A DNA stretch of 64,000 nucleotides from an uncultured Candidatus Saccharibacteria bacterium (GTDB lineage: Bacteria > Patescibacteriota > Saccharimonadia > Saccharimonadales > JBBQAJ01), in NCBI GenBank assembly GCA_964593805.1, contig CAZQHP010000001.1, forward strand, positions 192,091 to 256,090, read 5' to 3'. The translations under genes and the position numbers were made by a program. Below are positions 5,745-62,479 of this stretch, in pieces (the first letter of the stretch is position 1; each line of letters opens with the position of its first letter). The notes under the pieces were generated by a model. That model searched no databases, had not been told where the DNA came from, and worked only from the letters and a program-made list of their open reading frames with translations.

Positions 5745-7635
5745 TTGCCGGGGGTTTGGAAGTTAGGTCTATGAATACCTGGCCAATTCCAGGTACCTCA
5801 GTTTGTATTCGCGCAGTAACTTTCACTATGAAATCAAACGGTAAATCACGCTCGGGCAGCATGGGCTGAACCGTCATGAAGGTTGAAGTTGTAACAGGGC
5901 GGAGGACGATTGAGCGCTCACCAGGCTTGCCAAAAGACAGGGGCAAAAGCACCACCGGGAACTGGCTTATAGTTTTTGCGAGGTCGAAGCCGCGCATTTC
6001 TTCCCAGACAATTCTGTCAGCGTGTTGCAACTGGGCAATTTCAGCTGGTGCCACGAACGTGGGCGTGATTGTAAGATTTTCAATTGGCTGGTTTCCAAGC
6101 GCCACAGTGACTCGGTTTAGGTCATCTCGAAATTTTGCCGGCAGGCTTTTTGCTAGTTGCCCAAGTGTTTCCCATGAAGCAGTAGTTTGCAATGCCACAG
6201 CGGCTACATGCGAACGCTCGTCACCGCCCACACCGACGTTGCGCACGGGTAAAAGCCTGGCTAAAACTTTGTCTTTGGTGTTTGCGCCGTCCAAGTAATC
6301 CTGAATAAGCTTTTCAGTTTGTTCCGAGTCGGTTTTCTCGCTACCATTGGCGCACAGGATTCGCACCGCCAGGCCGGGGCCGGGAAATGGCTGTCGCTCA
6401 ACCACTTCTGCCGGCAAGCCCAAATGCTGGCCGACCGCACGCACTTCGTCTTTGAACAGCTCATCCAGCGGCTCAATCAACAGCCCGCGCTCCTTCAGTT
6501 CTTGCACTTCGCGTACTTGATTGTGATGAGTTTTTATCAGTGCCGTATGACTGCCACCTTTGCTGTATCCGCTTTCTATCCTGTCGGCGGCGTTGGTGCC
6601 TTGCAAAAGCAGAGCTTCTTCTAACCCAAGACCTGTTATCAAACGATTCTGAACGTCTATAAATGCTTTGCCGATAATCTGCCTTTTCTTTTGCGGGTCT
6701 ACCACGCCAGCCAAAGGAGTAAGAAAATCATCAGAAGCACCGACTTTTTTTACTGACACGCCCACATGTTTGAGGAGTTTTATGACGCCCGTGTCCTCAT
6801 GCCGCATCAGGCCATTGTCTATGTAATACGCGTGTAGTTTTTCGCGCGGTATCTCCGTGGCAGCCAGCGCCGCGCTGACGGAAGAATCAACACCTCCACT
6901 TACAAAGGCAATCACATGGCGACCCTTTGCTTTGGCTTGAATATCTTTCCGGAGTTGCGCAACCAATTCATCCATCTGATGGTCCAAAAATCCCTGGCTT
7001 GGTTTTAGCTTTGCAATGCCCTGCAGAAAGTTCTTGAATACTTGATAACCCTCCGGCGTGTCGTCAAAAACTTCCGGGTGGAACTGGACGGCCACTGTGT
7101 TGCCACGAGCAATTGCCGAATATACCGTTCTGCCGTCGTCAAGCTCATGCTGTCCGATAACCTTAAAATCTTTCGGAACCTCACTTACAAAGTTGCCATG
7201 TGTAAACAGGGCGCTGAAATTGGCTTTTGTGCCCGCGAAAAGCGGGTGATTAGTATCAACGGCTGTGATGACCCGGCCGTCTTGGCGTGATGTACCGCGA
7301 ACTACTTTGCCGCCAAGCTGCGAAGCCGCCGCGTGCAAGCCGTAGCAGATACCCAGGATAGGCATATTTAACTGCCAAATTTTTGCGTCAGGCAAAGGTG
7401 CATCCACTGCTTGCGAACTGGCGGGACTGCCAGAAATAATAACTGCTTTATATTTTTCTTGGAGTTCGGATGCCGGAGTATTGAGCGGCAGCACAACCGT
7501 GGGATAGCCCAGACGCTCGCAAGCTTTTTTGACTAAGTCTACATACTGACCGCCCGCGTCTAAAACCGCTACAACTGCCTTTGCGCTGGCTACTTGGTCT
7601 TTCATTACGTCATTATACCAGATAAGATGTTGCAT
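5728..7635 (-). CDS. guaA: GMP synthase (glutamine-hydrolysing), long form
   Basis: GATase nucleophile region GICYGLH, PP-loop SGGVDSSV, C-terminal ...TTEWE. An alternative start, MKDQV, lies at 7605. The 3' end overlaps the convergent phosphatase gene by 17 nt. Confidence 0.9.
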   Translation of the reverse strand: MQHLIWYNDVMKDQVASAKAVVAVLDAGGQYVDLVKKACERLGYPTVVLPLNTPASELQEKYKAVIISGSPASSQAVDAPLPDAKIWQLNMPILGICYGLHAAASQLGGKVVRGTSRQDGRVITAVDTNHPLFAGTKANFSALFTHGNFVSEVPKDFKVIGQHELDDGRTVYSAIARGNTVAVQFHPEVFDDTPEGYQVFKNFLQGIAKLKPSQGFLDHQMDELVAQLRKDIQAKAKGRHVIAFVSGGVDSSVSAALAATEIPREKLHAYYIDNGLMRHEDTGVIKLLKHVGVSVKKVGASDDFLTPLAGVVDPQKKRQIIGKAFIDVQNRLITGLGLEEALLLQGTNAADRIESGYSKGGSHTALIKTHHNQVREVQELKERGLLIEPLDELFKDEVRAVGQHLGLPAEVVERQPFPGPGLAVRILCANGSEKTDSEQTEKLIQDYLDGANTKDKVLARLLPVRNVGVGGDERSHVAAVALQTTASWETLGQLAKSLPAKFRDDLNRVTVALGNQPIENLTITPTFVAPAEIAQLQHADRIVWEEMRGFDLAKTISQFPVVLLPLSFGKPGERSIVLRPVTTSTFMTVQPMLPERDLPFDFIVKVTARIQTEVPGIGQVFIDLTSKPPATTEWE

Positions 7636-8791: not shown

Positions 8792-11700
8792 AAATTCGCA
8801 AAGTAGTGATTTTGGGTTCTGGCGGTCTGCGCATAGGCCAGGCCGGCGAGTTTGATTACTCCGGTTCCCAAGCCATCAAAGCGCTCAAAGAAGAAAAAAT
8901 CGAAACAGTGCTGATTAATCCAAACATAGCTACCGTGCAGACAGACCCAGACATGGCGGACCGAGTGTACTTTGAACCTTTAAACGTAAAAACCGTCACG
9001 AAAATATTGCAAAAAGAAAAACCAGACGCCATCATGCTCAGTTTCGGCGGCCAGACCGCGCTAAATCTAGGTTTGAGCCTGCATGACGCCGGCGTATTCA
9101 AAAAACTCGGCATCCGCGTGCTTGGTACCCCTGTTGAGGTTATTAAAACAACTGAAGACCGCGATTTGTTCAAAAATGCCCTGGAGAAAATAGGCACCAA
9201 AACTGCCCGCAGTATCGCTGCTTATACGGTCAACGAAGCTCGCGCCGCGGCTCGGGAAATTGGCTACCCAATCATGCTGCGTTCCGGCTTTAGCCTGGGC
9301 GGCCTGGGTTCTGGCCGTATCAATAATGACCAAGAACTTTTGCGCAAAGTGAACGAAGTGCTCCGGGTCGTACCGCAAGTGCTGATTGAAGAATACCTGG
9401 CCGGCTGGAAAGAAGTGGAATACGAAGTAGTACGAGACACTGGCGGCAATACCATAACGGTCTGCAACATGGAAAACTTTGACCCCATGGGCATCCACAC
9501 CGGCGAAAGTATTGTGATAGCACCGTCCCAAACGCTCACTAACGAGGAATACCACCGGCTGCGCGAGGTCGCCATCAAGACCATAAACCACCTGGGAATA
9601 ATTGGCGAATGCAACATCCAATACGCGCTGAATCCGGAAAATGGCGACTACCGAGTGATTGAGGTTAATGCCCGGCTGAGCCGTTCCAGCGCGCTGGCTT
9701 CCAAAGCAACAGGTTATCCGCTGGCGTTTGTGGCCAGCAAACTGATGCTTGGCTACCGCCTGCACGAACTCAAAAACGCCGTCACCGGCACGACTTCGGC
9801 GTTTTTTGAACCGGCTCTGGACTACGTGGCCGTCAAAATGCCACGCTGGGATTTGTCAAAACTAAAATCCAGCGATCACACGATTGGCACGGAAATGAAA
9901 AGCGTCGGCGAAGTCATGGCGCTTGGAAGAAGTTTTCCCGAAGCCTTGCAAAAAGCAATCCGCATGCTAAACATAGGCGCCCAGGGACTAACCGCGCATC
10001 CGTTTGAATTCAAAGACCCAGCCAAAGAAATCGCTCATCCCACCGATAAACGAGTATTCGCAATTCACGATGCTCTCAAACTAGGGGTTTCCGTAGACCG
10101 TATTCACGAACTTTCCAAAATTGATAATTGGTTTTTGGAACATCTTGCCGACATGGTAGAAACCGCCAGCAGCATAAAGCGCCAGCCCCTAGCCAAAGAA
10201 TTACTGCTCGAAGCCAAACAGAAAGGCTTTGCGGACAACGTAATCGCAAAACTTAAAAATACCAAAGAGGAAAACATAAGACAGCAGCGCCAAAAATTCG
10301 GGATAGTGCCTTACATAAAACAGATTGATACCCTAGCCGGTGAATTTGACGCCGCAACCAACTACCTGTACACCACCTATCATGGCAATACCCACGACGT
10401 TGAGCCTCTCAAAAAACCAATTATAGTTCTAGGCTCGGGTCCGTACTGTATTGGTTCTTCGGTTGAGTTTGATTGGTGCGCTGTCAACACCGCCAAAACC
10501 ATCCGCAAACACAAACTGCCAACCGTCATGGTAAATTCCAATCCAGAGACCGTGTCTACGGACTTTGACAGGTCTGACCGGCTGTACTTTGAAGAACTTT
10601 CACTGGAACGAATACGAGATATTGCCGATTTTGAACATCCAAAATCAATTGTGGTTTCGGTCGGCGGGCAGATTGCCAACAACCTTGCGCTGCCGCTGCA
10701 TCAGGCAGGTTATCCCATTCTTGGAACACCGCCGGGTCAAATTGACCGGGCGGAGGACCGCCAGAAATTTTCATCTATGCTAAACCGATTGGGGATAGAT
10801 CAACCAACCTGGGATGAAGTTTCTACACTGGCGCTGGCAAAAAAGTTTGCCGCCAAGGTCGGCTATCCAGTGCTAATCAGGCCTTCATATGTGCTATCCG
10901 GCGGTGCCATGAACGTTGTGACCAACGAACAGGAACTCAAACAATACCTCCAAGAAGCGGCGCATCTATCTCCGGACCATCCGGTAGTAATTTCCCAATT
11001 CATCGCCAACGCCAAAGAACTTGAAATTGACGGCGTGGCCCAAAATGGCGAACTCATCATATATGCCGTGTCCGAGCATATAGAAAATGCCGGCATTCAC
11101 TCGGGCGATGCCACCGTGGTTTTTCCGGCACAGCGGCTATACCTGGAAACCGTCCGCCAAGCCAAAAACATTACCAAGCAAATTATCAGCAACCTGAATA
11201 TAACCGGTCCGTTCAACGTGCAGTTCATAGCTAAAGACAACGAACTAAAAGTAATCGAGTGCAACGTGCGGGCTTCACGGTCATTTCCGTTCGTGTCCAA
11301 AGTCAGCAACCATAATTTTATAGAAATTGCCACCGAAGCCATGCTAGGCATAAAAAATAACAATACATACCAAACGCTTGAGCTGGATCACGTAGGCGTA
11401 AAAAGCCCGCAGTTTTCGTATAACCGGCTCAAAGGCGCCGATCCGGTGGCTGGCGTGGAAATGGCGTCTACTGGAGAAGTGGCTTGTTTTGGCGACGACC
11501 TGGCTAGCGCATTCTATGCCTCGTGGCTGGCAACCGAACAGCACATCAAAGCTAAGACTATGTTTTTAAGTTTGCCGGACGAACAAAAGTTCAAATTCGT
11601 GGACGAAGTCGCGGCTCTAGTGGCGCAAGGCTGGCAAATATACGCTACCGCCGGAACGCACCAGTTTTTTAAGCAGCACGGTATCAAAACAATCAAATTG

Positions 11701-17204: not shown

Positions 17205-18983
17205 ATGACCCAACAAAACATACGCAACTTTTGCATAATTGCTCATATTGATCACGGCAAGTCCACGCTGGCGGATCGTTTGCTGGAGCTTACTGGCACT
17301 GTGCAAAAACGCGACATGAAAGCCCAGATGCTGGACAAAATGGACTTGGAGCGCGAAAAGGGCATAACTATCAAGCTCGCCCCCGTGAGAATGAAGTACA
17401 AAGACTATGAGTTGAACTTAATTGACACCCCAGGACACGTAGATTTTAGCTACGAAGTTTCGCGTAGCTTGCAGGCCTGCGAAGGCGCAATTTTGGTGGT
17501 TGACGCTAGCCAGGGCATACAAGCCCAAACTTTAGCCAACGTATATTTGGCCCTTGCCGCCAACCTAACTATTATTCCGGTGCTTAATAAGATTGATTTA
17601 CCGGCCGCTAATGCAGAAAAGGTTAGTGCAGAAATTATAAGTTTACTGGGTTGCAAGCAGGAAGATATCTTGCAAATTTCAGCCAAAACCGGCGAGGGTG
17701 TCGAGTCAGTTTTGGAACAAGTTGTGAAGCGCGTACCAGCACCTGGGAGTAGTCAGACCCAGTTGACTCGGGCGCTTATTTTTGACAGTTATTATGATGA
17801 CTACCGAGGCGTGGTTTTATATGTGAGGGTATTTGATGGAGCGATTTCAAAAAATAGCCAAATAAAAATGATGGCCACGGATGCCAACGGTATTGCGCTA
17901 GAGGTCGGTGCGCTAAAGCCGCAGATGACACCGCTGCAAAAACTTAATAATGGCGAGATTGGCTACATAGTGACGAATCTCAAAAGTACCCGTGAAGCCA
18001 AGGTGGGGGACACCGTTACTTTGGCGGCCAACCCAGCCAGTGAGCAGTTACCGGGCTACAAAGAAGTGTTGCCGTTTGTGTACGCCGGATTTTTCCCAGA
18101 GAGCAATGACAAATACCAAGAGCTCAAAGATGCCGTAGAAAAATTAAGCCTTAGTGATTCGGCCCTGCAGTACGTACCAGAAAACTCCCCGGTGCTGGGT
18201 TTTGGCGTGCGAATAGGTTTCCTTGGACTGCTTCACATGGACATTGTAAAAGAGCGCTTGGAACGTGAATATGACCTGGAACTGGTGGTCACAAATCCGT
18301 CTACCGACTACCAAGTAACGCTCAACAACGGCGAGGAAATAGACATAAAATCAGCCAGTGAACTGCCAGACATGTCGTTGGTGCGGGAAATCCGTGAGCC
18401 GTGGGTAAACGCCGAAATAATTGTGCCGGACGAATACGTGGGAGGAGTTATACAGCTAATTGCTAGCAAACGCGGCCTGCAGAAAAACCTCAGCTACGTA
18501 GACAAGCGGGCGCTAATTGCTTTTGAAGCGCCGCTGGCAAACTTGCTGACAGATTTTTACGATCAGCTCAAGAGCGCGACCAGTGGCTACGGCAGTTTTA
18601 ATTACGAACTTTCTGATTACCGCACGGAAGACCTTGTACGCGTGGACTTTTACATAGCCGGAGAAATAGTTAACGCGTTAAGTATTATGGTGCACCGTAG
18701 TGAGGCACAAAAAATTGGGCGAGAAGTTGTAGAAAAACTAAAAGAAGTCATACCGCGCCAAAACTTTCAGGTTGCCCTGCAGGCGGCAATTGGCGGCAAA
18801 TTCATCGCCCGCGAAGATCTGAGCGCCTACCGCAAAGATGTAACTACCGGTTTGTACGGCGGCGACGTATCCCGCAAGAAAAAAGTGCTAGCCAAACAAG
18901 CCAAGGGCAAAAAACGCATGAAACGTTTCGGCAAAGTGGACATCCCGGCCGAAGCCTTTACGGTGATGTTAAAACGCGACTAA
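17205..18983 (+). CDS. lepA: elongation factor 4 (LepA)
   Basis: G-domain AHIDHGKSTLADR, DTPGHVDF and NKIDL motifs, plus the LepA C-terminal domain. 592 aa. Confidence 0.95.
   Translation: MTQQNIRNFCIIAHIDHGKSTLADRLLELTGTVQKRDMKAQMLDKMDLEREKGITIKLAPVRMKYKDYELNLIDTPGHVDFSYEVSRSLQACEGAILVVDASQGIQAQTLANVYLALAANLTIIPVLNKIDLPAANAEKVSAEIISLLGCKQEDILQISAKTGEGVESVLEQVVKRVPAPGSSQTQLTRALIFDSYYDDYRGVVLYVRVFDGAISKNSQIKMMATDANGIALEVGALKPQMTPLQKLNNGEIGYIVTNLKSTREAKVGDTVTLAANPASEQLPGYKEVLPFVYAGFFPESNDKYQELKDAVEKLSLSDSALQYVPENSPVLGFGVRIGFLGLLHMDIVKERLEREYDLELVVTNPSTDYQVTLNNGEEIDIKSASELPDMSLVREIREPWVNAEIIVPDEYVGGVIQLIASKRGLQKNLSYVDKRALIAFEAPLANLLTDFYDQLKSATSGYGSFNYELSDYRTEDLVRVDFYIAGEIVNALSIMVHRSEAQKIGREVVEKLKEVIPRQNFQVALQAAIGGKFIAREDLSAYRKDVTTGLYGGDVSRKKKVLAKQAKGKKRMKRFGKVDIPAEAFTVMLKRD
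18888..18982 (+). repeat. direct repeat copy 1 (functional 3' end of lepA)
   Basis: ctagccaaacaagccaagggcaaaaaacgcatgaaacgtttcggcaaagtggacatcccggccgaagcctttacggtgatgttaaaacgcgacta recurs 1820 bp downstream at 20708..20802. The only differences are c/t at 18975/20795 and the stop codon (taa versus tag). Confidence 0.95.
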
Positions 18984-19077: not shown

Positions 19078-20700
19078 ATGCCGAGTAAAAGAAAACAGTC
19101 AAGATATAACCTGTCGTTTAACAAAAAGAAAAGCAAAAAATCCAGATCCTCGTTATTCAGACCCCTTTTGAGTAGACGGTCACTTTTCGTTCTTCTTTTC
19201 GCAGCCGTTGGTGCTGCTGTAGTAATCATCTCTAGTGCTTTAACCTCGGGATTTAGTTTTTCTGGTCAAGTTACTGACAAAAATCCAACAAAATCTTTTA
19301 CTGTAACTTCTCCTGCGGTAGGCACTCTTAAAGCAAATCTGTCTTGGGACCGAACTACTACACTAAATCTAAAAATTGAAGACCCTTCTGGCGCTGTAGT
19401 GTACAACCAGTCTGCAGACAAATCACCTATCAGTACAACTGTTTCCACAACCAAAGGAAGCTACAGGATTTATGTTTCAAAAGTAGGTGGCTGGAATTCC
19501 AAGTTTAGTCTTACGGGCGACATAACTACGCCAGACCCTGATAGTACAGGTCCATTGGTAAGCTTTTCTGCGCCTACGAATGGAGCAACCGTAGCCGGTG
19601 GTGTACCTGTGCAGGCTACCGCCTCACACTCCTCCGGTATAACTAAAATCGATTTTCTTATAGATAATTCAGTTTATCGATCGGAAAGCCAGTCGCCATA
19701 CTGTATGGCGGGCGATAGCGGCGGGGCATGCTTCGCTTGGGATAGCAAAACAGTTTCTGACGGCCAACACACTTTGAGCGCTGTAGCATACGCAGGCAAT
19801 GGCCAAACTACGCGTACTGACATCACAATTACTGTTGCCAATAATTCCACAACTACGCCGCCGCCTACAACCGGAGGCGGAGGGAGCGGTACGTTGTCGT
19901 GGGCGCCTCCGGCAAACTGGAATAACTTTACTACCAAGACTGTGCCAGCAAGCGGCGGAACTATTAGCTTAGCTAATGACACAGACTATAAACTGGTTGC
20001 ACCCGAAATAATTACAGGGCCTGTAACTATCACAGGTGGCCGCAATATCGTCTGGATTGGCGGTGTCTTTGGTGGCCGGACTACCATGCCGTCTGGTTCT
20101 TACGACTCTACAAATAGGGGAATAAGATTATATGATGGCGCTGACGTTGCGCGGACTGTCCACTTCGAAGGTTTATGGTTTAAGCCAGGCACATATTTGT
20201 CGGACGCCATTCAGATTGCAATTCGCAGCAATAACAGCGTAAGGGTAGTTGTCCAGAACGTGCGCGTAGACTCATATACTTACGGTACCCAAGCAGGAGT
20301 GCATGCCGATACAATCCAAGCATGGGGCGGGCCGACGACATTACTAATCGACAGCCTAACCGCAAAAAATGTCACTTACCAGGGCTTTTACCTGGATCCC
20401 CAGGACGGTCGAACATTGCCGACTGGAAGTCGTGAAGCGTGGGTAACTCGGCGAGTAAATCTTGAAGGTAATTCCGCTTTGACTGGCAGTACAAGCTATA
20501 TGCTGACCAACCGAAGACCCGATTTTACCAATATGATTAACGACCGTGTCTATACAAACGGCTCAAGTAAAAACTCGACTGACACCTACGCGAACTGGCC
20601 AAGCGCCGGATTGACACAAAATGCGACTCCCCCTGGCGGAGACTGGGTACCAGCATCGCTTTGGATAGGCACAACATATACTTCACCCGGATATCAATAA
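19078..20700 (+). CDS. secreted/anchored protein with PPC-like and Ig-like domains and a possible beta-helix C-terminal region
   Basis: 540 aa. Basic N-terminus plus a hydrophobic segment ([20 protein letters not shown]). A bacterial Ig-like stretch ([37 protein letters not shown]...HTLSAVAY). A Thr/Pro/Gly linker. RBS aaaggtgag lies upstream. Function unknown. Confidence 0.7.
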
Positions 20701-20707
20701 TAAGGTC

Positions 20708-20803
20708 CTAGCCAAACAAGCCAAGGGCAAAAAACGCATGAAACGTTTCGGCAAAGTGGACATCCCGGCCGAAGCCTTTACGGTGATGTTAAAATGCGAC
20801 TAG
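20708..20803 (+). pseudogene. orphan duplicate of the last ~95 nt of lepA (direct repeat copy 2)
   Basis: Near-identical to 18888..18983. It has no upstream lepA body and is followed by the only terminator-like hairpin in the region. Confidence 0.9.
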
Positions 20804-20811
20804 TTCAAAAA

Positions 20812-20850
20812 AGCCTTGTGGAATTACGAGAACCCCACAAGGCTATTTTA
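20812..20850 (+). terminator. putative intrinsic terminator (probably the ancestral lepA terminator)
   Basis: agccttgtgg (20812..20821) pairs with ccacaaggct (20835..20844) and is followed by atttta. Confidence 0.5.
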
Positions 20851-20932
20851 GGCGTATTTGTTTGCTCTTATGCTACACCCATGTGTCAACAAATGCACCT
20901 CTTTTTTATGTGTCTTTGTATGTCTTCAGGGG

Positions 20933-21012
20933 AGAGTAGCCCGCCAAAATGTATTTCATTTTGCCGGCGCGATGAGAGGAGATGTTCCCCTCTCATGAGG
21001 TGAAGCCGCTCT
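20933..21012. repeat. multi-hairpin intergenic element, copy A
   Basis: agagtagc - hairpin (ccgccaaaatg/cattttgccgg) - gcgatgagagg/cctctcatgagg hairpin - tgaagccgct, ending on the stop codon of the minus-strand gene at 21011. Shares blocks with 60761..60843 and 46192..46309. Confidence 0.7.
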
Positions 21013-21430
21013 ATTTCCAAACAGAAAGAAGCACACCGTTAATTAGCAATACCACTAGGAAGTAACCAGTGTTAATTGCCCATAGTTTTTTGCGCGTGCC
21101 GGCAAAAATAGTGTTAACGCCCTGTGGTATGGCCACAAAAGCCAGCCATGCCCAAAAGGCTGTAAAAAGCCCGACCGACACGTCGCTGTATGTCGGATAA
21201 AAGTACGCCGCGAACGCGACAAAATGCAACAAAATATATGTCTGAACAAATGCCCCAATAGTGGTAATGACGTATCCCTGGGTTCCATCGCCCATTTCAT
21301 CCATTTTATGCCCTGTTAATTTGGACCACTGCTTGGCAAACAGCGCTGGCGAATACCAGACAAAACCCACCACCATATTTACGACTACGGCCGCAACTAT
21401 TGCTAACCAGTTAATATCTACGCTTGGCAT
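21011..21430 (-). CDS. DUF1761-like small membrane protein
   Basis: 139 aa with four predicted TM helices. The N-terminus, INWLAIVAAVVVNMVVGFVWYSPALFAKQW, resembles the DUF1761 family. Confidence 0.65.
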   Translation of the reverse strand: MPSVDINWLAIVAAVVVNMVVGFVWYSPALFAKQWSKLTGHKMDEMGDGTQGYVITTIGAFVQTYILLHFVAFAAYFYPTYSDVSVGLFTAFWAWLAFVAIPQGVNTIFAGTRKKLWAINTGYFLVVLLINGVLLSVWK

Positions 21431-21501: not shown

Positions 21502-22245
21502 ATGATTCGTATGGATAACAGTCTTCAGCATCTTGAGGAATTCAAAAAAATTCTTGCTGACTATCATATATCAAATCAGAGCAAAACAATTTTGGCACGT
21601 ACCAAACTTGCTTTGCTTTTGGCGCCTTCGGGGGGAGGACGCAATACGCTAATCCGTGAACTGGTAAAAACCGGCAAATACCATTTTATAGTTTCAGATA
21701 CCACGCGAAAGCCTAGAGTAAACGACGGCATCGCAGAAAAAAACGGCGTGGAGTATTGGTTCAGAACTGAACAAGAAATACTGGCCGATCTAGAAGCAGG
21801 CAAATTCCTGGAAGCAGAACTGATACATGGCCAGCAGGTTTCGGGCATAAGTATACGGGAGTTGCAAAAAGCCCAAGACGAAAACCGAATTGCCATCACC
21901 GATGTGGATATGGGGGGCTTACACAACATTGTGCAGGCCGTTCCTGACATTACGGCCGTTTTGGTACTCCCGCCTTCGTTTGAAGAGTGGCAAAGGCGTA
22001 TGCTAAATAGAGGGGAAATGACCGTGAGTGAACACAAACGCCGCCTCGAGACGGCTATCAAAATATTTTCCATGGCGCTCGAACATAGCTACTTTAAGTT
22101 TGTAATTAATGACAAATTAGAACATGCCGTTGAGCAAATTCAGGCCCTTACCCACAAGCAAGTAAATACAGACCAGCAACAAAAAGACAGGGTGCTTACC
22201 AAACGGCTTATTACTGATACGCAAAATTGGCTAAAAACCAATTAG
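21502..22245 (+). CDS. guanylate kinase-like protein
   Basis: P-loop APSGGGRNTL followed by SDTTRKPR...GVEYWF, typical of the guanylate kinase family. Start taken as MIRMDN at 21502. Confidence 0.7.
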   Translation: MIRMDNSLQHLEEFKKILADYHISNQSKTILARTKLALLLAPSGGGRNTLIRELVKTGKYHFIVSDTTRKPRVNDGIAEKNGVEYWFRTEQEILADLEAGKFLEAELIHGQQVSGISIRELQKAQDENRIAITDVDMGGLHNIVQAVPDITAVLVLPPSFEEWQRRMLNRGEMTVSEHKRRLETAIKIFSMALEHSYFKFVINDKLEHAVEQIQALTHKQVNTDQQQKDRVLTKRLITDTQNWLKTN

Positions 22246-22268
22246 CACTCTTGACACCCGAGTGCCAG
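22242..22268 (+). promoter_or_regulatory. CIRCE operator 1 (HrcA binding site)
   Basis: TTAGCACTC-ttgacaccc-GAGTGCCAG versus consensus TTAGCACTC-N9-GAGTGCTAA. Confidence 0.8.
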
Positions 22269-22280
22269 CTCTAGTACAAT
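22251..22280 (+). promoter_or_regulatory. sigma-70-type promoter of the hrcA-grpE-dnaK operon
   Basis: TTGACA (22251..22256), an 18-nt spacer, then TACAAT (22275..22280). Bracketed by the two CIRCE elements. Confidence 0.6.
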
Positions 22281-22306
22281 TAGCACTAGCTTAAGATGAG
22301 TGCTTA
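22280..22306 (+). promoter_or_regulatory. CIRCE operator 2
   Basis: TTAGCACTA-gcttaagat-GAGTGCTTA. Overlaps the hrcA start region. Confidence 0.8.
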
Positions 22307-23010
22307 TGACAGACAGACAAGCTAAACTATTAGCCGCAATTGTAGAGCAATACGCCGAAGTAGCCAGTCCGGTCGGTTCTTCGCTGTTGGCCAAAGCCTT
22401 CAACGTCTCGTCCGCAACCATCCGCGCCGAAATGGCCGAATTAGAACGTATGGGCTATATACAACAGCCCCACACCAGCGCCGGCAGAGTGCCTACGGAC
22501 AAAGGCTATAGGTTTTATGTAAACAACATGACCGAACAGATAGAAACATCCGCGGAACGCCGCGGCGAACGTGCTCTTACGGCTCGCGTGTCTGGCGGCG
22601 GTCTGCCAGAACGCACTATTCGTAACGCCGTGGATACTCTCGTAGAACTGACTCACAACCTAGGACTGGCCACCATCGGCGACCAGTTGTACATGGGGGG
22701 TTTGGCCAATTTATTCGGCCAACCAGAATTTATAGGTGGCGCCCAGGTACAGCAGGTTGCTCGCCTGCTGGATAATCTAGAGCCATGGCTCAGGGAAGCC
22801 GCGCCCAATCAACCTCTCAGTGTATATATAGGCGCAGAAAATCCCATTGGCCGCAGCGCGCAGTGTTCGCTTATCATCAGTAAATTCCGTAGTCCCTACA
22901 GCGATGAAAGCTACATCGGCGTGCTTGGACCCACCCGCCAAAGCTACCGCGACGTCATGAACTTGGTAGAGCACGCCGGCCGCACCCTGGAAGGAGCTTT
23001 GTATGAGTAA
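22300..23010 (+). CDS. hrcA: heat-inducible transcription repressor HrcA (short form)
   Basis: N-terminal winged-helix region, RQAKLLAAIVEQYAEVASPVGSSLLAK...SSATIRAEMAELERMGYIQQPHTSAGRVPTDKGYRFYV. The start is GTG at 22300 or, more likely, ATG at 22306. Preceded by CIRCE sites. Confidence 0.85.
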   Translation: MLMTDRQAKLLAAIVEQYAEVASPVGSSLLAKAFNVSSATIRAEMAELERMGYIQQPHTSAGRVPTDKGYRFYVNNMTEQIETSAERRGERALTARVSGGGLPERTIRNAVDTLVELTHNLGLATIGDQLYMGGLANLFGQPEFIGGAQVQQVARLLDNLEPWLREAAPNQPLSVYIGAENPIGRSAQCSLIISKFRSPYSDESYIGVLGPTRQSYRDVMNLVEHAGRTLEGALYE

Positions 23011-45585: not shown

Positions 45586-46191
45586 ATGAAAATTACGGAT
45601 ATTAAGCAACAGGTTAAACGGGTCGATAGGTATTCGATTTATGTGGATGGCAAGTATTCGTTTCCGCTGGGCGAAACCGAGCTGCTGAACGCCAGATTGC
45701 GGATTGGACAGGAATTTACAGAGGCAGAGCTGGATGAGTTGAAAGACAGAGCAGTTATAGACAAAGGTTGTGACAGAGCGCTGAATCTCATCATGCGCCG
45801 CCCTAGATCCGCGTGGGAGCTGCGGGATTATTTGAAGCGGAAAGAATACACCCCAGAGGCCACAGAACAAATACTTAACATGTTAAGTAAAAAGGGATAT
45901 GTAAATGACGCGGACTTTGCACGCCGCTGGGTAGAAAGCCGCCGGTTGCTCAAAGCCACCAGCAAACGCCGTCTTGTCCAGGAATTACGCCAGAAGCGCG
46001 TGGCAGATGAAATTATCCAGTCGGTTTTAGAATCCGACGAAACAGACGAACAAGACGTTTTACGTGAACTCATAGAACGCAAACGCAAACAAACCAAGTA
46101 TCAAGATGACTTAAAACTCATGCAGTACCTTGTGCGCCAAGGCTATAACTACGGTGATATTAAAGCAGTACTCAACGAAGATTTGAGCTAG
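45586..46191 (+). CDS. recX: recombination regulator RecX
   Basis: 201 aa. Three-helix repeat pattern with RSAWELRDYLKRK... and DDLKLMQYLVRQGYNYGDI. Confidence 0.85.
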   Translation: MKITDIKQQVKRVDRYSIYVDGKYSFPLGETELLNARLRIGQEFTEAELDELKDRAVIDKGCDRALNLIMRRPRSAWELRDYLKRKEYTPEATEQILNMLSKKGYVNDADFARRWVESRRLLKATSKRRLVQELRQKRVADEIIQSVLESDETDEQDVLRELIERKRKQTKYQDDLKLMQYLVRQGYNYGDIKAVLNEDLS

Positions 46192-46309
46192 GGTAGAGCA
46201 GCCCACGCTCGGATTCATTCCGAGCTTGGCGCTATAGGGGTTCCCATGAAACCAGTTTCATGGGGTAAGGTGAGAGGGGATGTTCCCCGAGCGTTCGGCG
46301 AAGCCGCTA
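46192..46309. repeat. multi-hairpin intergenic element, copy B (expanded variant)
   Basis: gtagagcagccc...gagaggggatgttcccc...cgaagccgcta shares its head, middle and tail blocks with copy A. Contains extra hairpins gctcgga-ttcat-tccgagc and cccatgaaac-cag-tttcatggg. Ends on the stop codon of the minus-strand gene at 46307. Confidence 0.6.
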
Positions 46310-46837
46310 GGCGGCTGGTGATACGGCGCCAGCCGGTACGGCGTTTTTAACTTCTTTGAGTGGCTCTTGAACAACTATTTTGCGGTCGGTAATCTCTACA
46401 ATCTGGCTGCGGTCAATGCTCAGGTTGCCACCAGTCAAGCTTTTTAAAATACTTTGGCCCACGTAAATTTTCTGCACGTACATTGCAGCGTCATCTACCG
46501 CGTAATCATTTACTTTGCCCAGCCGCTGTTTGTTGACAGTTACCACAGGCTTGCCAATCAGCGTGAATTGGAGCTTCAACACTTTTTCCAACCGTATCAG
46601 TTCCTCGGGATCAACCAAAACTTCGTGGTCGTTTACCACAAATCCACGCTCCACGCGGTCGCGAATGTCCTGCGTCAGCAGAATCAACTGTTTTTTTTCA
46701 AATCGGTCGTCGCAGTAAAATCCCTCAACCTTTAGATTGTTGGGATTAATGATTGGTTCGGTGGCAGTAGCCACCTGCCCGCCAGTCCGCAGAGACAGAA
46801 CTGATTGGTTTAAAAGTGTTGAACTAAGTTGCAGCAT
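46307..46837 (-). CDS. PRC-barrel domain protein (two repeats)
   Basis: 176 aa. Two repeats of the PRC-barrel-like pattern (SVLSLRTGGQVATATEPIINPNNLKVEGFY and LIGKPVVTVNKQRLGKVNDYAVDDAAMYVQKIYV). Confidence 0.55.
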   Translation of the reverse strand: MLQLSSTLLNQSVLSLRTGGQVATATEPIINPNNLKVEGFYCDDRFEKKQLILLTQDIRDRVERGFVVNDHEVLVDPEELIRLEKVLKLQFTLIGKPVVTVNKQRLGKVNDYAVDDAAMYVQKIYVGQSILKSLTGGNLSIDRSQIVEITDRKIVVQEPLKEVKNAVPAGAVSPAA

Positions 46838-51237: not shown

Positions 51238-52092
51238 TTAAGCTCGCTTCCCAGCCTTTGCCAAAAGGAGCGGAAAAATCGTTTGATGACGGTGATTATA
51301 ACGAAAGGCAAATTCTGCGACGTATGAACCAAGATAATAAGGAGAAACTGCGTGGTAAGTCCCATCCAAAGAACGTTTCAACTGGCCGAAAAAGCCCTCC
51401 ACGTGGTTCGTCGTAACACCGTCTTTTACAAACTCCTTAGCAATATGCCTAACTGATTTGTGATTATAAAATTGTTTGACCTGTAGATGTTTATAAATCT
51501 TGCTTTCGTCAGTATGTAGCATTGAACCATCATCTACATTCTCACGTAGAAATGGAAGAGCGTGTTGTGAGTTGGCTCTAGGTACAACCTGAGTCCTAAT
51601 CTCTCCACCTACTTCCAGAGCCGCCATAACGGGTGTTTTATGGTCTTTATAGGCTTGCCTGCGTTTACCGCCTATATAGGCTTCATCTACTTCAATCGGT
51701 GTGCCTAAAAAACCAAGTTTACCGCTTTCATGCATAAGAACCCGTATCATCTTGGCCATTCTATGTGCTGTTTTATAAGAAACACCGACTTGTCTTTGTA
51801 TTTCTAGAGCTGCGACACCGTTCTTAGACACGGAGAATAGATATAACGCGTGAAACCATAACGACAGTGGTGTCGTAGACTTTTCAAAGATTGTGCCAAC
51901 TAGCGGATAGATCTGTTGCCTGCAGGTGGCACACTTGAAGGACATACGGTTTTTAACACGCCAGAACTTCGTACCAATAACACCGCACTTAGGGCAAGTC
52001 TTTAGGTCGCCATAACGATAGTCAAAGACGAGTTGCAGGCACGACTCATCATCAGGAAAGTCTGCCCTCAAGTCCTTAATGGTGTATCTCAT
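51238..52092 (-). CDS. IS1595-family (ISXO2-like) DDE transposase
   Basis: N-terminal zinc ribbon CPKCG...CATC, a helix-turn-helix region, then IEVDEAYIGGKRR and HTDESKIY blocks. 284 aa. Confidence 0.85.
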   Translation of the reverse strand: MRYTIKDLRADFPDDESCLQLVFDYRYGDLKTCPKCGVIGTKFWRVKNRMSFKCATCRQQIYPLVGTIFEKSTTPLSLWFHALYLFSVSKNGVAALEIQRQVGVSYKTAHRMAKMIRVLMHESGKLGFLGTPIEVDEAYIGGKRRQAYKDHKTPVMAALEVGGEIRTQVVPRANSQHALPFLRENVDDGSMLHTDESKIYKHLQVKQFYNHKSVRHIAKEFVKDGVTTNHVEGFFGQLKRSLDGTYHAVSPYYLGSYVAEFAFRYNHRHQTIFPLLLAKAGKRA

Positions 52093-60345: not shown

Positions 60346-60663
60346 ATGAACGTACAACTAAAATCACCTAAAGAAATGGCAATCACTAGTATTGAGTGGT
60401 TCGTCGTAGCGGCATTGCTTGTGCTGGGCTTGCGCTTTGTTTTTCGCCTTTTTGGCGCGGAAGGCAGTGGCGACGGTTTCGTAGCTTGGCTATACGACAC
60501 CAGCAATGTGCTTTTACAACCGGTTCGCGGCGTGTTTCCCGAAACGGCTGTCAGGAGCAAGAATGCGTTTGAATTCGCAACTCTGTTCGCAGCAGTCGCC
60601 TACATGGGCGTAGGCAACGTAGCAATGGGCGTGGTGGAACGCTGGTCACCGAAGCGTAAATAG
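60346..60663 (+). CDS. small membrane protein, possibly YggT-like
   Basis: 105 aa with two TM helices. RFVFRLFGA...LLQPVRGVFP is reminiscent of YggT repeats. Confidence 0.45.
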   Translation: MNVQLKSPKEMAITSIEWFVVAALLVLGLRFVFRLFGAEGSGDGFVAWLYDTSNVLLQPVRGVFPETAVRSKNAFEFATLFAAVAYMGVGNVAMGVVERWSPKRK

Positions 60664-60675
60664 TAAATCAGTGCA

Positions 60676-60719
60676 CTAAATAAAAACTTCCCCTTTAATT
60701 AGGGGAAGTTTTTATTTAG
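60676..60719 (+). terminator. strong intrinsic terminator / bidirectional hairpin
   Basis: ctaaataaaaacttcccct-ttaatt-aggggaagtttttatttag, a perfect 19-bp stem whose arms contain A- and T-runs on both sides. Confidence 0.8.
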
Positions 60720-60760
60720 CTCAACCGCCAAGTAATAGAAACTGTAGCTAAAAAGGTAAA

Positions 60761-60843
60761 AGAGTAGCGTTGGCAAACATGTATTCCATTTTGCCTGAGC
60801 GATGAGAAAAACCGTAGGTTTGTCTCATGAGGCGTAGCCGCTA
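60761..60843. repeat. multi-hairpin intergenic element, copy C
   Basis: agagtagc - ggcaaacatg/ccattttgcc hairpin - gcgatgagaaaaacc/ggtttgtctcatgagg hairpin - cgtagccgcta. Ends on the stop codon of the HTH::MurA gene. Confidence 0.7.
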
Positions 60844-62361
60844 GAGATCGTGCATGATTGTAATCTGGGCGCCAAGGCTGTTTAGGCGGTCGGCTAAATC
60901 TTCATAGCCGCGATTGATAGAGTAGACGTTTCTCAGAATAGAAATGCCTGGCGCGGCCAGCATGCCAATTAGCAGTAGCACGGCTGGGCGCAGGGCAGGC
61001 GGGCAGACAATGTCCGCGGCGCTGAATTTGGTTGGGCCGTCCACGTATGCCCGGTGCGGGTCGGCCAGGGTGACGTTGGCGTTGAGTTTGCGTAGCTCCG
61101 TATAATACAAAGCCCGTTCTTCATAAACCCAGTCATGTATCAGCGTGCGGCCTTTGGCAACGGCGCAGATAGGCACAAAATAAGGCAAGTTATCAATATT
61201 GAGGCCAGGGAAGGGGCGGGCATAGATTTTTTCTTCCAGCGCTACCAGTTCACCGTCGTGCTTATGGATGGTTATGTCCGCCAAATTTGTAAAACCGTTT
61301 TCCGCTTTATAGTAAGGTGTTACGTCAAATTTCAGATTCATTTTTTTTAATTTCAGCAGTTCTAGTTCCAAAAATTCAATTGGCGCGCGCGTTATGGAGA
61401 TTTTTGAGTTGGTAGTAACGGCCGCCGCGATAAACGTCATAGCCTCTATGGGGTCTTCGCTTGGGTGATAAGTCACGTTTTTCTTTATATCTTTCACGCC
61501 CTTTACGGTCAGGGTGCTAGTGCCGACTCCCTCTATTTTAACGCCGAGTTTTTTGAGAAAACAGCACAAATCCTGAACCATGTAGTTAGCGCTGGCCATT
61601 TTAATCACGATCTCTTCTTCAAACTTGGCTGCCGCCATCAGCACGTTTTCTGTCGTGGTGTCGCCGGATTCATATAGCACAATCTGTTTGGCTGGATGTT
61701 TTTTAACCATCACGTTGTAGTAGCCGGCCTTGGCTACAATATCAACGCCCAGTTCCTCGAGCGCGAACAAATGCGGCTGAACCGTCCTGGTGCCAAGTTT
61801 GCAGCCCCCAGCATAGGGAATTTTAAATTCTTTGAACATATGCATAAGCGGGCCAAGCAACATGAGCACGCTGCGGGTTTTTCGCGCTGCCGCCGCGTCT
61901 ATTTTGTCCAAATCCAGAACTGCCGGCGGTTTAATTTCCAAATCATTTCCAGCTAGCCAGCGGACATGCACGCCTATACTCACCAATACTTCGATCAAAC
62001 GGTTTACTTCTTCAATGCGCGGCATGTGCTTGAGCCGTGTAGTGCCTTTGTTGAGCAGAGACGCCATAAGCAGACAAACAGCGGCGTTTTTAGAAGTTTT
62101 GGTCTCTATAGTCCCGTGCAGTTCATGGCCGCCTTCTACGCGCAGATTTACGGCACCGCTGCTGAGGCTAATGATGGGTTTGTTGAGTACATCGCTGATT
62201 CGCCCCAGGGTTTCAAGGCTCAAGTTCTGATGGCCATGTTCAATCCGGTTAACGGCGCTCTGGCTAGTGCCGAGCTTGCGCGCAAAAGCCGCCTGCGTCA
62301 GGCCTCGCTCTTGCCGTATCTGGTAAATAAGTTGGCCAATTTTCTCGTTAGTCGTCTTCAT
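60841..62361 (-). CDS. murA: XRE-family HTH domain fused to UDP-N-acetylglucosamine 1-carboxyvinyltransferase (MurA)
   Basis: N-terminal ~65 aa: IGQLIYQIRQERGLTQAAFARKLGTSQSAVNRIEHGHQNLSLETL (Cro/C1 HTH). The remainder is a full MurA fold (GTIETKTSKNAAV..., active-site loop GGCKLGTRTVQPH with Cys retained). Start taken as MKTTNEK at 62361. Confidence 0.9.
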   Translation of the reverse strand: MKTTNEKIGQLIYQIRQERGLTQAAFARKLGTSQSAVNRIEHGHQNLSLETLGRISDVLNKPIISLSSGAVNLRVEGGHELHGTIETKTSKNAAVCLLMASLLNKGTTRLKHMPRIEEVNRLIEVLVSIGVHVRWLAGNDLEIKPPAVLDLDKIDAAAARKTRSVLMLLGPLMHMFKEFKIPYAGGCKLGTRTVQPHLFALEELGVDIVAKAGYYNVMVKKHPAKQIVLYESGDTTTENVLMAAAKFEEEIVIKMASANYMVQDLCCFLKKLGVKIEGVGTSTLTVKGVKDIKKNVTYHPSEDPIEAMTFIAAAVTTNSKISITRAPIEFLELELLKLKKMNLKFDVTPYYKAENGFTNLADITIHKHDGELVALEEKIYARPFPGLNIDNLPYFVPICAVAKGRTLIHDWVYEERALYYTELRKLNANVTLADPHRAYVDGPTKFSAADIVCPPALRPAVLLLIGMLAAPGISILRNVYSINRGYEDLADRLNSLGAQITIMHDL

Positions 62362-62479
62362 GGGCTCAAATATAATACCACCCGAGGTATAAAAAACAAG
62401 ACTTGCTACAATAGGTATATGATTTGACGACAATACCCACTTCAGAATTTATAAACGTGAGTATTTATGGGAGTTTGAT

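Follow-up and report, generated by a model that had tools for sequence, protein, structure and literature searches.

The stretch of Saccharibacteria DNA analysed here (64 kb, referred to as the window) contains three copies of a small structured repeat that we take, with moderate confidence, to be a non-autonomous, insertion-polymorphic mobile element of about 80-90 nt that lodges at the ends of open reading frames (ORFs), with a 3' end that is sharp and a 5' end that varies from copy to copy. We suspect that mobilisation proceeds via a folded single-stranded intermediate of the + strand, and that copies would survive only where they leave genes unbroken: flush with the ends of ORFs, beside tRNA genes or within leaders. 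Because such survival geometry in compact genomes would place copies flush with ORF ends, it provides a likely explanation for their appearance of ending on stop codons. After insertion, a copy would be co-transcribed in whichever orientation it had landed, and any host role, for example in RNA processing or stability, would be secondary. Against a mobile origin stand the lack of the terminal inverted repeats of an insertion sequence (IS) and of a target duplication of fixed length; a low apparent copy number, with 1-4 copies detected per sampled relative genome (counts that refer to windows of 8-20 kb per genome) and three in this 64 kb; and the recurrence of several positions across species, in the same orientation and with the structure intact (after ssb/rpsR, before tRNA-Asn and before hrcA). 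Nor did we find a transposase, reverse transcriptase or recombinase linked to the element.

A filter-free covariance-model scan of the window returned exactly three copies (A, B and C), all on the + strand, and no fourth (Table 1). The relatedness of A and C, noticed in a first-pass annotation of this DNA, stands: the two align end to end over their full length with nhmmer (E about 1e-7), and B gives a weaker match, in its 3' half (E about 0.01). The three copies are real, but the extents first assigned to them had to be corrected to those in Table 1. The accompanying statement that the last bases of the element form the TAG of the minus-strand gene holds for B and C, where the stop codon overlaps the last two bases (GCCG/CTA), but not for A, where the stop (21011-21013) follows the element without overlap. 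Copy B is a diverged or rearranged member of the family: covariance-model alignment assigns it a 59-nt insertion, and the lower stem of hairpin 2 is degraded or lost. An additional perfect hairpin at 46236-46265 (CCCATGAAAC-CAG-GTTTCATGGG) is present in this copy and absent from all others, and B may be a rearranged or nested copy. The window as a whole has a G+C content of 48%, and its genes include hrcA-grpE-dnaK-dnaJ, recA-recX, an HTH-MurA fusion gene and genes for type IV pili. Its bases 11011-31430 match an ENA metagenome contig of 776,748 bp with 100% identity, and these features, along with pattern-scan hits in Saccharibacteria MAGs, mark the source as a Saccharibacteria genome. The fusion, of an N-terminal HTH (Xre-type) domain to MurA (UDP-GlcNAc 1-carboxyvinyltransferase), is conserved, with 80-91% identity, across thousands of sequences from Patescibacteria. 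This small genome also harbours conventional IS elements, as shown by a gene at 51238-52092 (-) for an IS1595-family (ISXO2-like) DDE transposase with a zinc ribbon.

Table 1. Element copies, adjoining genes and terminators in the window, and hairpins flanking Y1_Tnp genes in related loci (positions in the numbering of the window or of the locus named)
Feature	Position	Strand	Remarks
Copy A	20929-21010	+	covariance-model score 80.8 bits, E 1e-21
Copy A, purine extension	20929-20934		GGGGAG
Copy A, closing-stem 5' strand	20935-20940		AGTAGC
Copy A, hairpin 1	20941-20967
Copy A, hairpin 2	20972-20996
Copy A, mini-hairpin	20999-21007		GGTGAAGCC
Copy A, terminal GCT	21008-21010
Copy B	46192-46308	+	covariance-model score 24-38 bits, E 4e-5 to 2e-8
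Copy C	60755-60842	+	covariance-model score 70.4 bits
Copy C, extension	60755-60762		GGTAAAAG
Copy C, AGTAGC	60763-60768
Copy C, tail GCCGCT	60837-60842
DUF1761 gene	21011-21430	-	ORF list and Pfam; stop directly after copy A
PRC-barrel gene	46307-46837	-	TAG overlaps copy B tail
HTH-MurA fusion gene	60841-62433	-	TAG 60841-60843 overlaps copy C tail
Canonical intrinsic terminator	20812-20844	- (T-run on minus strand)	about 85-92 nt beyond copy A head
Bidirectional intrinsic terminator	60672-60708	both	between ORF 60346-60663 and copy C head
Y1_Tnp flanking hairpins, L094	5767-5787, 6461-6481		gene 5817-6434
Y1_Tnp flanking hairpins, L101	9948-9968, 10640-10660
Y1_Tnp flanking hairpins, L100	about 9960-10000, 10640-10665, 11000-11025

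Scans of a genome collection and of metagenomes with a pattern that left the stems unspecified, followed by nhmmer and a covariance model on the fetched loci, recovered about 30-31 distinct copies, all from Saccharibacteria loci (genomes and metagenomes). The check proposed at first pass, a covariance model and a scan of related genomes, turned up about 30 further copies and established the family as genuine. Matches outside Saccharibacteria occurred at chance level, mostly in G+C-rich genomes, and had no score; the 31 pattern matches in viral contigs were likewise at chance level, and nhmmer confirmed none of them. Because the proteins encoded at syntenic loci share 78-89% identity with their counterparts in the window, the sampled genomes represent one fairly close lineage, and the family is, as far as sampled, confined to one lineage of Saccharimonadales. 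The copies share an invariant core, GGGAAGAGCAGCC...CGCGATGAGA...TCTCATAAGGCGAAGCCGCT, within the consensus GGGAAGAG-CAGCC-[hairpin 1]-CGCG-ATGAGA[distal hairpin 2]TCTCAT-AA-GGCGAAGCC-GCT. Among the models of Rfam 15, which include hammerhead, twister, pistol, hatchet and HDV-like ribozymes, tRNA and SRP RNA, none matched the window or 14 loci at gathering score, and copies A, C and the near-consensus copy of L074 gave nothing at E<=10. A search of the literature on structured RNAs, small RNAs and miniature inverted-repeat transposable elements (MITEs) in Saccharibacteria and the candidate phyla radiation (CPR) produced nothing relevant. The repeat family is previously undescribed, with neither an Rfam entry nor a description in the searched literature.

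The first-pass description of the element as a pair of hairpins captured its two long hairpins but missed a closing stem (AGC/GCU) and a mini-hairpin (GGC-GAA-GCC) that RNAalifold places in the same consensus fold. The fold is accordingly modelled as a three- or four-way junction with a GNA-looped mini-hairpin, and an alternative three-way-junction pairing (AGCAGC/GCCGCU plus CGC/GCG) may also be accessible. The covariation noted between A and C, and with it the idea of selection on structure, was borne out in a MAFFT alignment of 25 homologues compared with 500 shuffles and with controls in which pairing partners were slid. Paired cells made up 93.7% of the total versus 78.6% in shuffles, and the covariation score was 0.397 versus 0.141 in shuffled alignments (0/500 reached it) and 0.08-0.18 for slid partners, so that compensatory change exceeds both controls, as expected of a motif whose pairing is selected. 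Double changes were found at 12 pairs, seven in hairpin 1 and five in hairpin 2. The closing stem and mini-hairpin showed no variation within the 25-homologue set; in a diverged copy (L101), GGGAC-CUA-GUCCC replaces GGC-GAA-GCC, which supports the mini-hairpin. These features also led us to reject a hammerhead reading of GAUGAG...CGAA: the bases concerned are paired and covary, the junction has only 0-2 unpaired nt, and the position equivalent to G5 varies.

Conservation is unevenly spread over this fold. The distal stems vary freely yet stay paired, and an invariant stretch of about 40 nt surrounds the junction, paired positions included, which implies sequence-specific recognition. The core is also unchanged across genomes that differ at about 20% of synonymous sites, which speaks for purifying selection, a host function or, at the least, concerted evolution, as opposed to a purely selfish element. 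Taken with the recurrent positions and the maintained pairing, it suggests selection beyond selfish spread, and an RNA role in processing or stability, whether secondary or primary, is a live rival to simple mobility.

The two strands of the element do not fold equally well. Minimum free energies favour the reverse strand in 22/26 copies, by a mean of 2.9 kcal/mol, an advantage that arises because two conserved A.C positions become G.U there. When G.T and A.C were scored alike, the sporadic non-canonical pairs of the + strand comprised 15 G.T versus 3-5 A.C, small numbers that are partly affected by how the copies were fished out, and the G.T excess was also seen in copies transcribed only in reverse. 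Loops on the + strand include C-GAA-G and C-GUA-G triloops, a GUAA tetraloop and G(CUUG)C tetraloops. With moderate confidence, we infer from these pairs and loops that the + strand is probably the selected folded form, either as RNA or as single-stranded DNA.

In all copies, the purine arm of hairpin 2 is mirrored, in each subtype, by a purine extension that precedes the element on its 5' side. Within the window the mirrored segments are 20929-20936 and 20974-20981 in copy A and 60755-60764 and 60804-60813 in copy C; examples of the correspondence are GGGGAGAG with GAGAGGGG, GGAAAAGAG with GAGAAAAACC and, in L045, GGGAGGAGAG with GAGAGGAGG. The mirror could reflect a purine-motif triple helix or merely linkage within subfamilies.

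One line of evidence for insertion comes from sites that are filled in the window and empty in relatives. In four related genomes (L105-L108, PRC-barrel protein 83-89% identical), the site of copy B is empty, and recX and the PRC-barrel gene converge with their stops overlapping by 4 nt or lying 6-10 nt apart. In the window, copy B is placed exactly between the recX stop (46189-46191) and the PRC-barrel stop (46307-46309), with the junctions reading GAGCTAG/GGTAG...GCCG/CTAGGCGG, so that CTAG (or AG) is duplicated and neither protein has lost its native end. The site of copy C is empty in three relatives (L109, L110 and L111), in which unrelated sequence follows the stop and the HTH-MurA gene ends in the same ...MHE/DL-TAG. 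No covariance-model match was found in 51 kb from the relatives with empty B and C sites. The stop codons occur in element-free relatives as well and are therefore native, not contributed by the element. Judged from these comparisons, the copies appear to be insertions, although the empty sites may instead reflect loss by precise deletion in the relatives.

Four copies are flanked by direct repeats of 47 nt (L058), 44 nt (L057), 42 nt (L079) and 30 nt (L074; p<0.005 each) that duplicate the 3'-terminal part of the co-oriented gene on the upstream side. Of the two repeats, the upstream one ends at the stop codon and is separated from the element by a leader of 10-23 nt, and the downstream one begins 0-3 nt after GCCGCT. 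None of the other copies had significant decayed target duplications around them. Leader sequences are shared by unrelated copies, and across the family the element has a sharp 3' end (GCCGCT) and a 5' end with a variable leader of 0-23 nt. In L057 and L058, the paired repeats are identical within each genome and carry about ten synonymous differences between genomes, a pattern that points to recent independent events or to gene conversion. The copies downstream of lepA in these two genomes are positional counterparts of copy A, and the post-lepA copy in L101 has the orientation opposite to that in L058, L057 and the window. Near copy A, the window also contains a 108-nt direct repeat of the lepA 3' end, 95% identical (18875-18982 and 20695-20802), that brackets a gene for a Big_7-domain protein (19078-20700), and in L057 a separate 75-nt duplication of the lepA end surrounds a terminator hairpin. 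The 3' end of lepA seems to be a hot spot for insertions in general, which arrive there together with a duplication of the gene end.

How copies lie relative to their neighbours bears directly on what they might do. In about 17/30 copies the tail is 0-14 nt from the stop of a convergent ORF, and in 10-12 it is exactly flush (U/AGCGGC). The abutted stops are TAG in 12/17 cases versus a genome usage of 38-42%, an excess that fits junction microhomology or a target preference. The same facts would be expected if the element belonged to the 3' untranslated region (3'-UTR) of the gene whose stop it abuts, acting as an mRNA stabiliser or an unconventional terminator, as the first-pass annotation had proposed, or in some coupling to UAG termination. 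Consistent with this idea, the more stable reverse-strand folds form a clean three-way junction, and canonical terminators on that strand lie beyond the element in A, C, L045 and L074; as the one beside copy A lies beyond its head, minus-strand transcripts would traverse the copy before terminating. We nevertheless consider the idea improbable, and as a reading for minus-strand genes it is contradicted by the overall distribution of copies. Orientation relative to the transcription of neighbouring genes is about 50:50 over about 30 copies, and around 12 copies face the other way, 5' of tRNA-Asn, tRNA-Val, tRNA-Asp or the hrcA ATG or between co-oriented genes. With orientation mixed across contexts, a dedicated 3'-UTR role for the abutting gene cannot be general. 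The native stops of element-free relatives and the terminators already present after A and C also speak against it, as do the closing stems of A and C, "T variants" in which the stem is broken on the reverse strand (C.A) and kept on the + strand (U.G), and the + strand bias of wobble pairs in copies transcribed only in reverse. An intrinsic (Rho-independent) terminator in particular was rejected, given the lack of a U-tract (there is no T-run at either end) and the separate canonical terminators beside A, C, L045 and L074. A bias relative to the direction of replication was rejected as well, because both orientations occur within 5-8 kb of each other in L037 and in L094.

A different set of neighbours raises the possibility that the element is primarily a host RNA on the + strand. 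In three species its tail adjoins the 5' end of tRNA-Asn, 0-2 nt away. Copies without a tail lie before tRNA-Val and tRNA-Asp, and the tRNA-linked copies form promoter-element-tRNA-terminator units. In L094 and L096, the tail adjoins the true hrcA ATG, downstream of a CIRCE operator and promoter. This placement between CIRCE and the ATG leaves no room for a conventional ribosome-binding site. In the window, two CIRCE operators (TTAGCACTC-N9-GAGTGCTAA-like) and a TTGACA-18-TACAAT promoter (22242-22306) lie directly upstream of hrcA (22300-23010). According to the host-RNA explanation, the element would act in RNA processing or as "punctuation", perhaps in a self-cleaving or nuclease-directed manner, to leave an RNA end exactly at GCCGCU; its dispersal would be secondary. 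Such a module might free tRNA 5' ends and a leaderless or split-RBS hrcA mRNA, and might cleave read-through transcripts that would otherwise become antisense to convergent genes. The good promoters upstream of the tRNA-linked copies and terminators after the tRNA would suit this role, as would the + strand G.U pairs, the GNRA and CUUG loops, the maintenance of structure at recurrent positions and the invariant junction core, a feature typical of ribozymes or protein-binding RNAs.

We regard a primarily host-encoded RNA as unlikely nonetheless. About a dozen copies are transcribable in one sense only, about ten only in the opposite sense and the rest in both, and the copies restricted to the opposite strand, which include two inside a pyk-pgk-tpi gene string (L053), those after ssb or after the next gene (L055, L082 and L092) and the L046 copy, have no convincing + strand promoter. 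On the reverse strand, A, C, L045 and L074 are followed by terminators, close relatives have neither the element nor a compensating feature at the B and C sites, and no known ribozyme in Rfam resembles the element. In L046, the copy (953-1040) stands upstream of the RNase P RNA gene (1086-1438) in a head-to-head arrangement and at a distance of 46 nt, and the RNase P promoter (TTGTGC-17-TATAAT) is in the spacer between the two. Two kinds of promoter were considered for the element itself and rejected: a fixed promoter upstream of the head, as for an independent small RNA gene, because only the tRNA- and hrcA-linked copies have promoters, whose distance varies, and an internal sigma-70 promoter (ATGAGA-17-CATAAG), whose -10-like hexamer lacks the conserved T.

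If the mobile reading is correct, it has implications for how CPR genomes are viewed. These ultra-small bacteria have tiny, streamlined genomes that are thought to be poor in repetitive and mobile DNA, and the element would indicate that they still host small mobile DNA in the form of a branched, insertion-polymorphic unit wedged exactly between genes: between overlapping convergent stops, before tRNAs, and between a heat-shock promoter and a start codon. It would serve as a marker for strain-level variation and rearrangement, and would account for unusual "intergenic" structures that are liable to be misread by gene callers and RNA-motif scans. Should the invariant core instead prove to be a processing signal or ribozyme, it would define a new RNA class.

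Among known systems, the REP/BIME and REPIN repeats that accompany RAYT genes in Proteobacteria have much in common with the element, and in behaviour a REP/BIME-like family was the closest of the options offered at first pass. Like those repeats, it is short, structured, extragenic and found at gene ends in either orientation, is co-transcribed with its neighbours, keeps its stems by compensatory change and persists over long evolutionary times. A dispersed intergenic repeat is therefore a fair description, but strict REP identity does not hold. The hallmarks of REP/RAYT systems are a 5' GTAG with a single imperfect palindrome, a RAYT gene flanked by the repeat and tens to hundreds of copies per genome. 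The GTAG taken at first pass as typical of REP is indeed found in the heads of A and C, but the head consensus is GAGCAGCC, with GCAG, and GTAG is a minority variant (5/~26 copies, A and C included). Moreover, the element is an ~85-nt branched three- or four-way junction at apparently low copy number, whereas REP is a 35-nt palindrome or doublet. The suggested search for a RAYT gene did uncover a candidate in relatives: L094 encodes a 205-aa Y1_Tnp protein, found with E. coli RayT (Pfam E 1.3e-8, HUH and Tyr motifs aligned), whose family has >2,600 relatives in Patescibacteria and whose gene is 2 kb from element copies. The window, however, contains no Y1_Tnp/RayT-like gene, and the Y1_Tnp genes in L094/L103, L101 and L100 are flanked not by the element, whose nearest copies are ~2 kb or more away, but by other inverted hairpins that are absent elsewhere in the fetched loci. 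These genes encode 205-210 aa, and their flanks are inverted imperfect palindromes (TTTGCGAGG-N5-CCTTGCAAA, or ATTTGGAGGACWGTCCTCCAAAT in L100); gene and hairpins together look like a minimal IS200/RAYT-type unit widespread in Patescibacteria. Long target duplications, present at some copies of the element, are to our knowledge not a feature of Y1 transposition (IS200/IS605). A classical REP/REPIN family mobilised by RAYT, an HUH Y1 transposase, is for these reasons the least probable of the explanations that we weighed.

The tRNA-linked copies invite comparison with eukaryotic SINEs and other retroposed small RNAs, which are likewise small structured units whose 3' end is sharp and whose 5' end varies, with target duplications of variable length and, as here, candidate "source" copies physically linked to tRNA genes. 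One could imagine a bacterial SINE-like retroposon that spreads through RNA from promoter-element-tRNA units: RNase P cleavage at the tRNA 5' end would yield an RNA ending at GCCGCU (+0-2 nt), a variable transcription start would set its 5' end, and the RNA would be reverse-transcribed and inserted at gene ends with target duplications of variable length. Such a scheme fits because of the sharp 3' end, the 0-23-nt leaders, the 2-47-nt duplications and the + strand-specific folding, but, unlike SINEs, the element has no linked reverse transcriptase, A-tail or internal promoter. We know of no SINE-type retroposition in bacteria, and we consider this route very improbable.

Integron attC sites provide a third parallel, as they too are folded single-strand sites, conserved in structure and variable in sequence, that start at or overlap the stop of the preceding gene and fold strand-specifically with conserved irregularities. 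The element differs in lacking the R''/L''-L'/R' core sites (no RYYYAAC/GTTRRRY ends were found in the alignment) and cassette arrays, in having no integron integrase nearby, and in being dispersed among housekeeping genes in either orientation.

Finally, the mobile structured repeat that we favour resembles MITEs such as the Correia elements of Neisseria and the enterobacterial ERIC/IRU sequences in being non-autonomous and intergenic, in having filled and empty sites between relatives (B empty in four genomes and C in three), and in being transcribed with its neighbours and able to alter their RNA. It differs from an IS-derived MITE in that its ends (AGCAGC/GCCGCT) pair over 3-6 nt only and do not match terminal inverted repeats of an IS, and in that its duplications, of 2-4 nt at B and 30, 42, 44 and 47 nt elsewhere, are not of a fixed short length. 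One of its ends is sharp and the other ragged, a geometry that hints at mobilisation unlike that of standard IS, MITE or REP systems.
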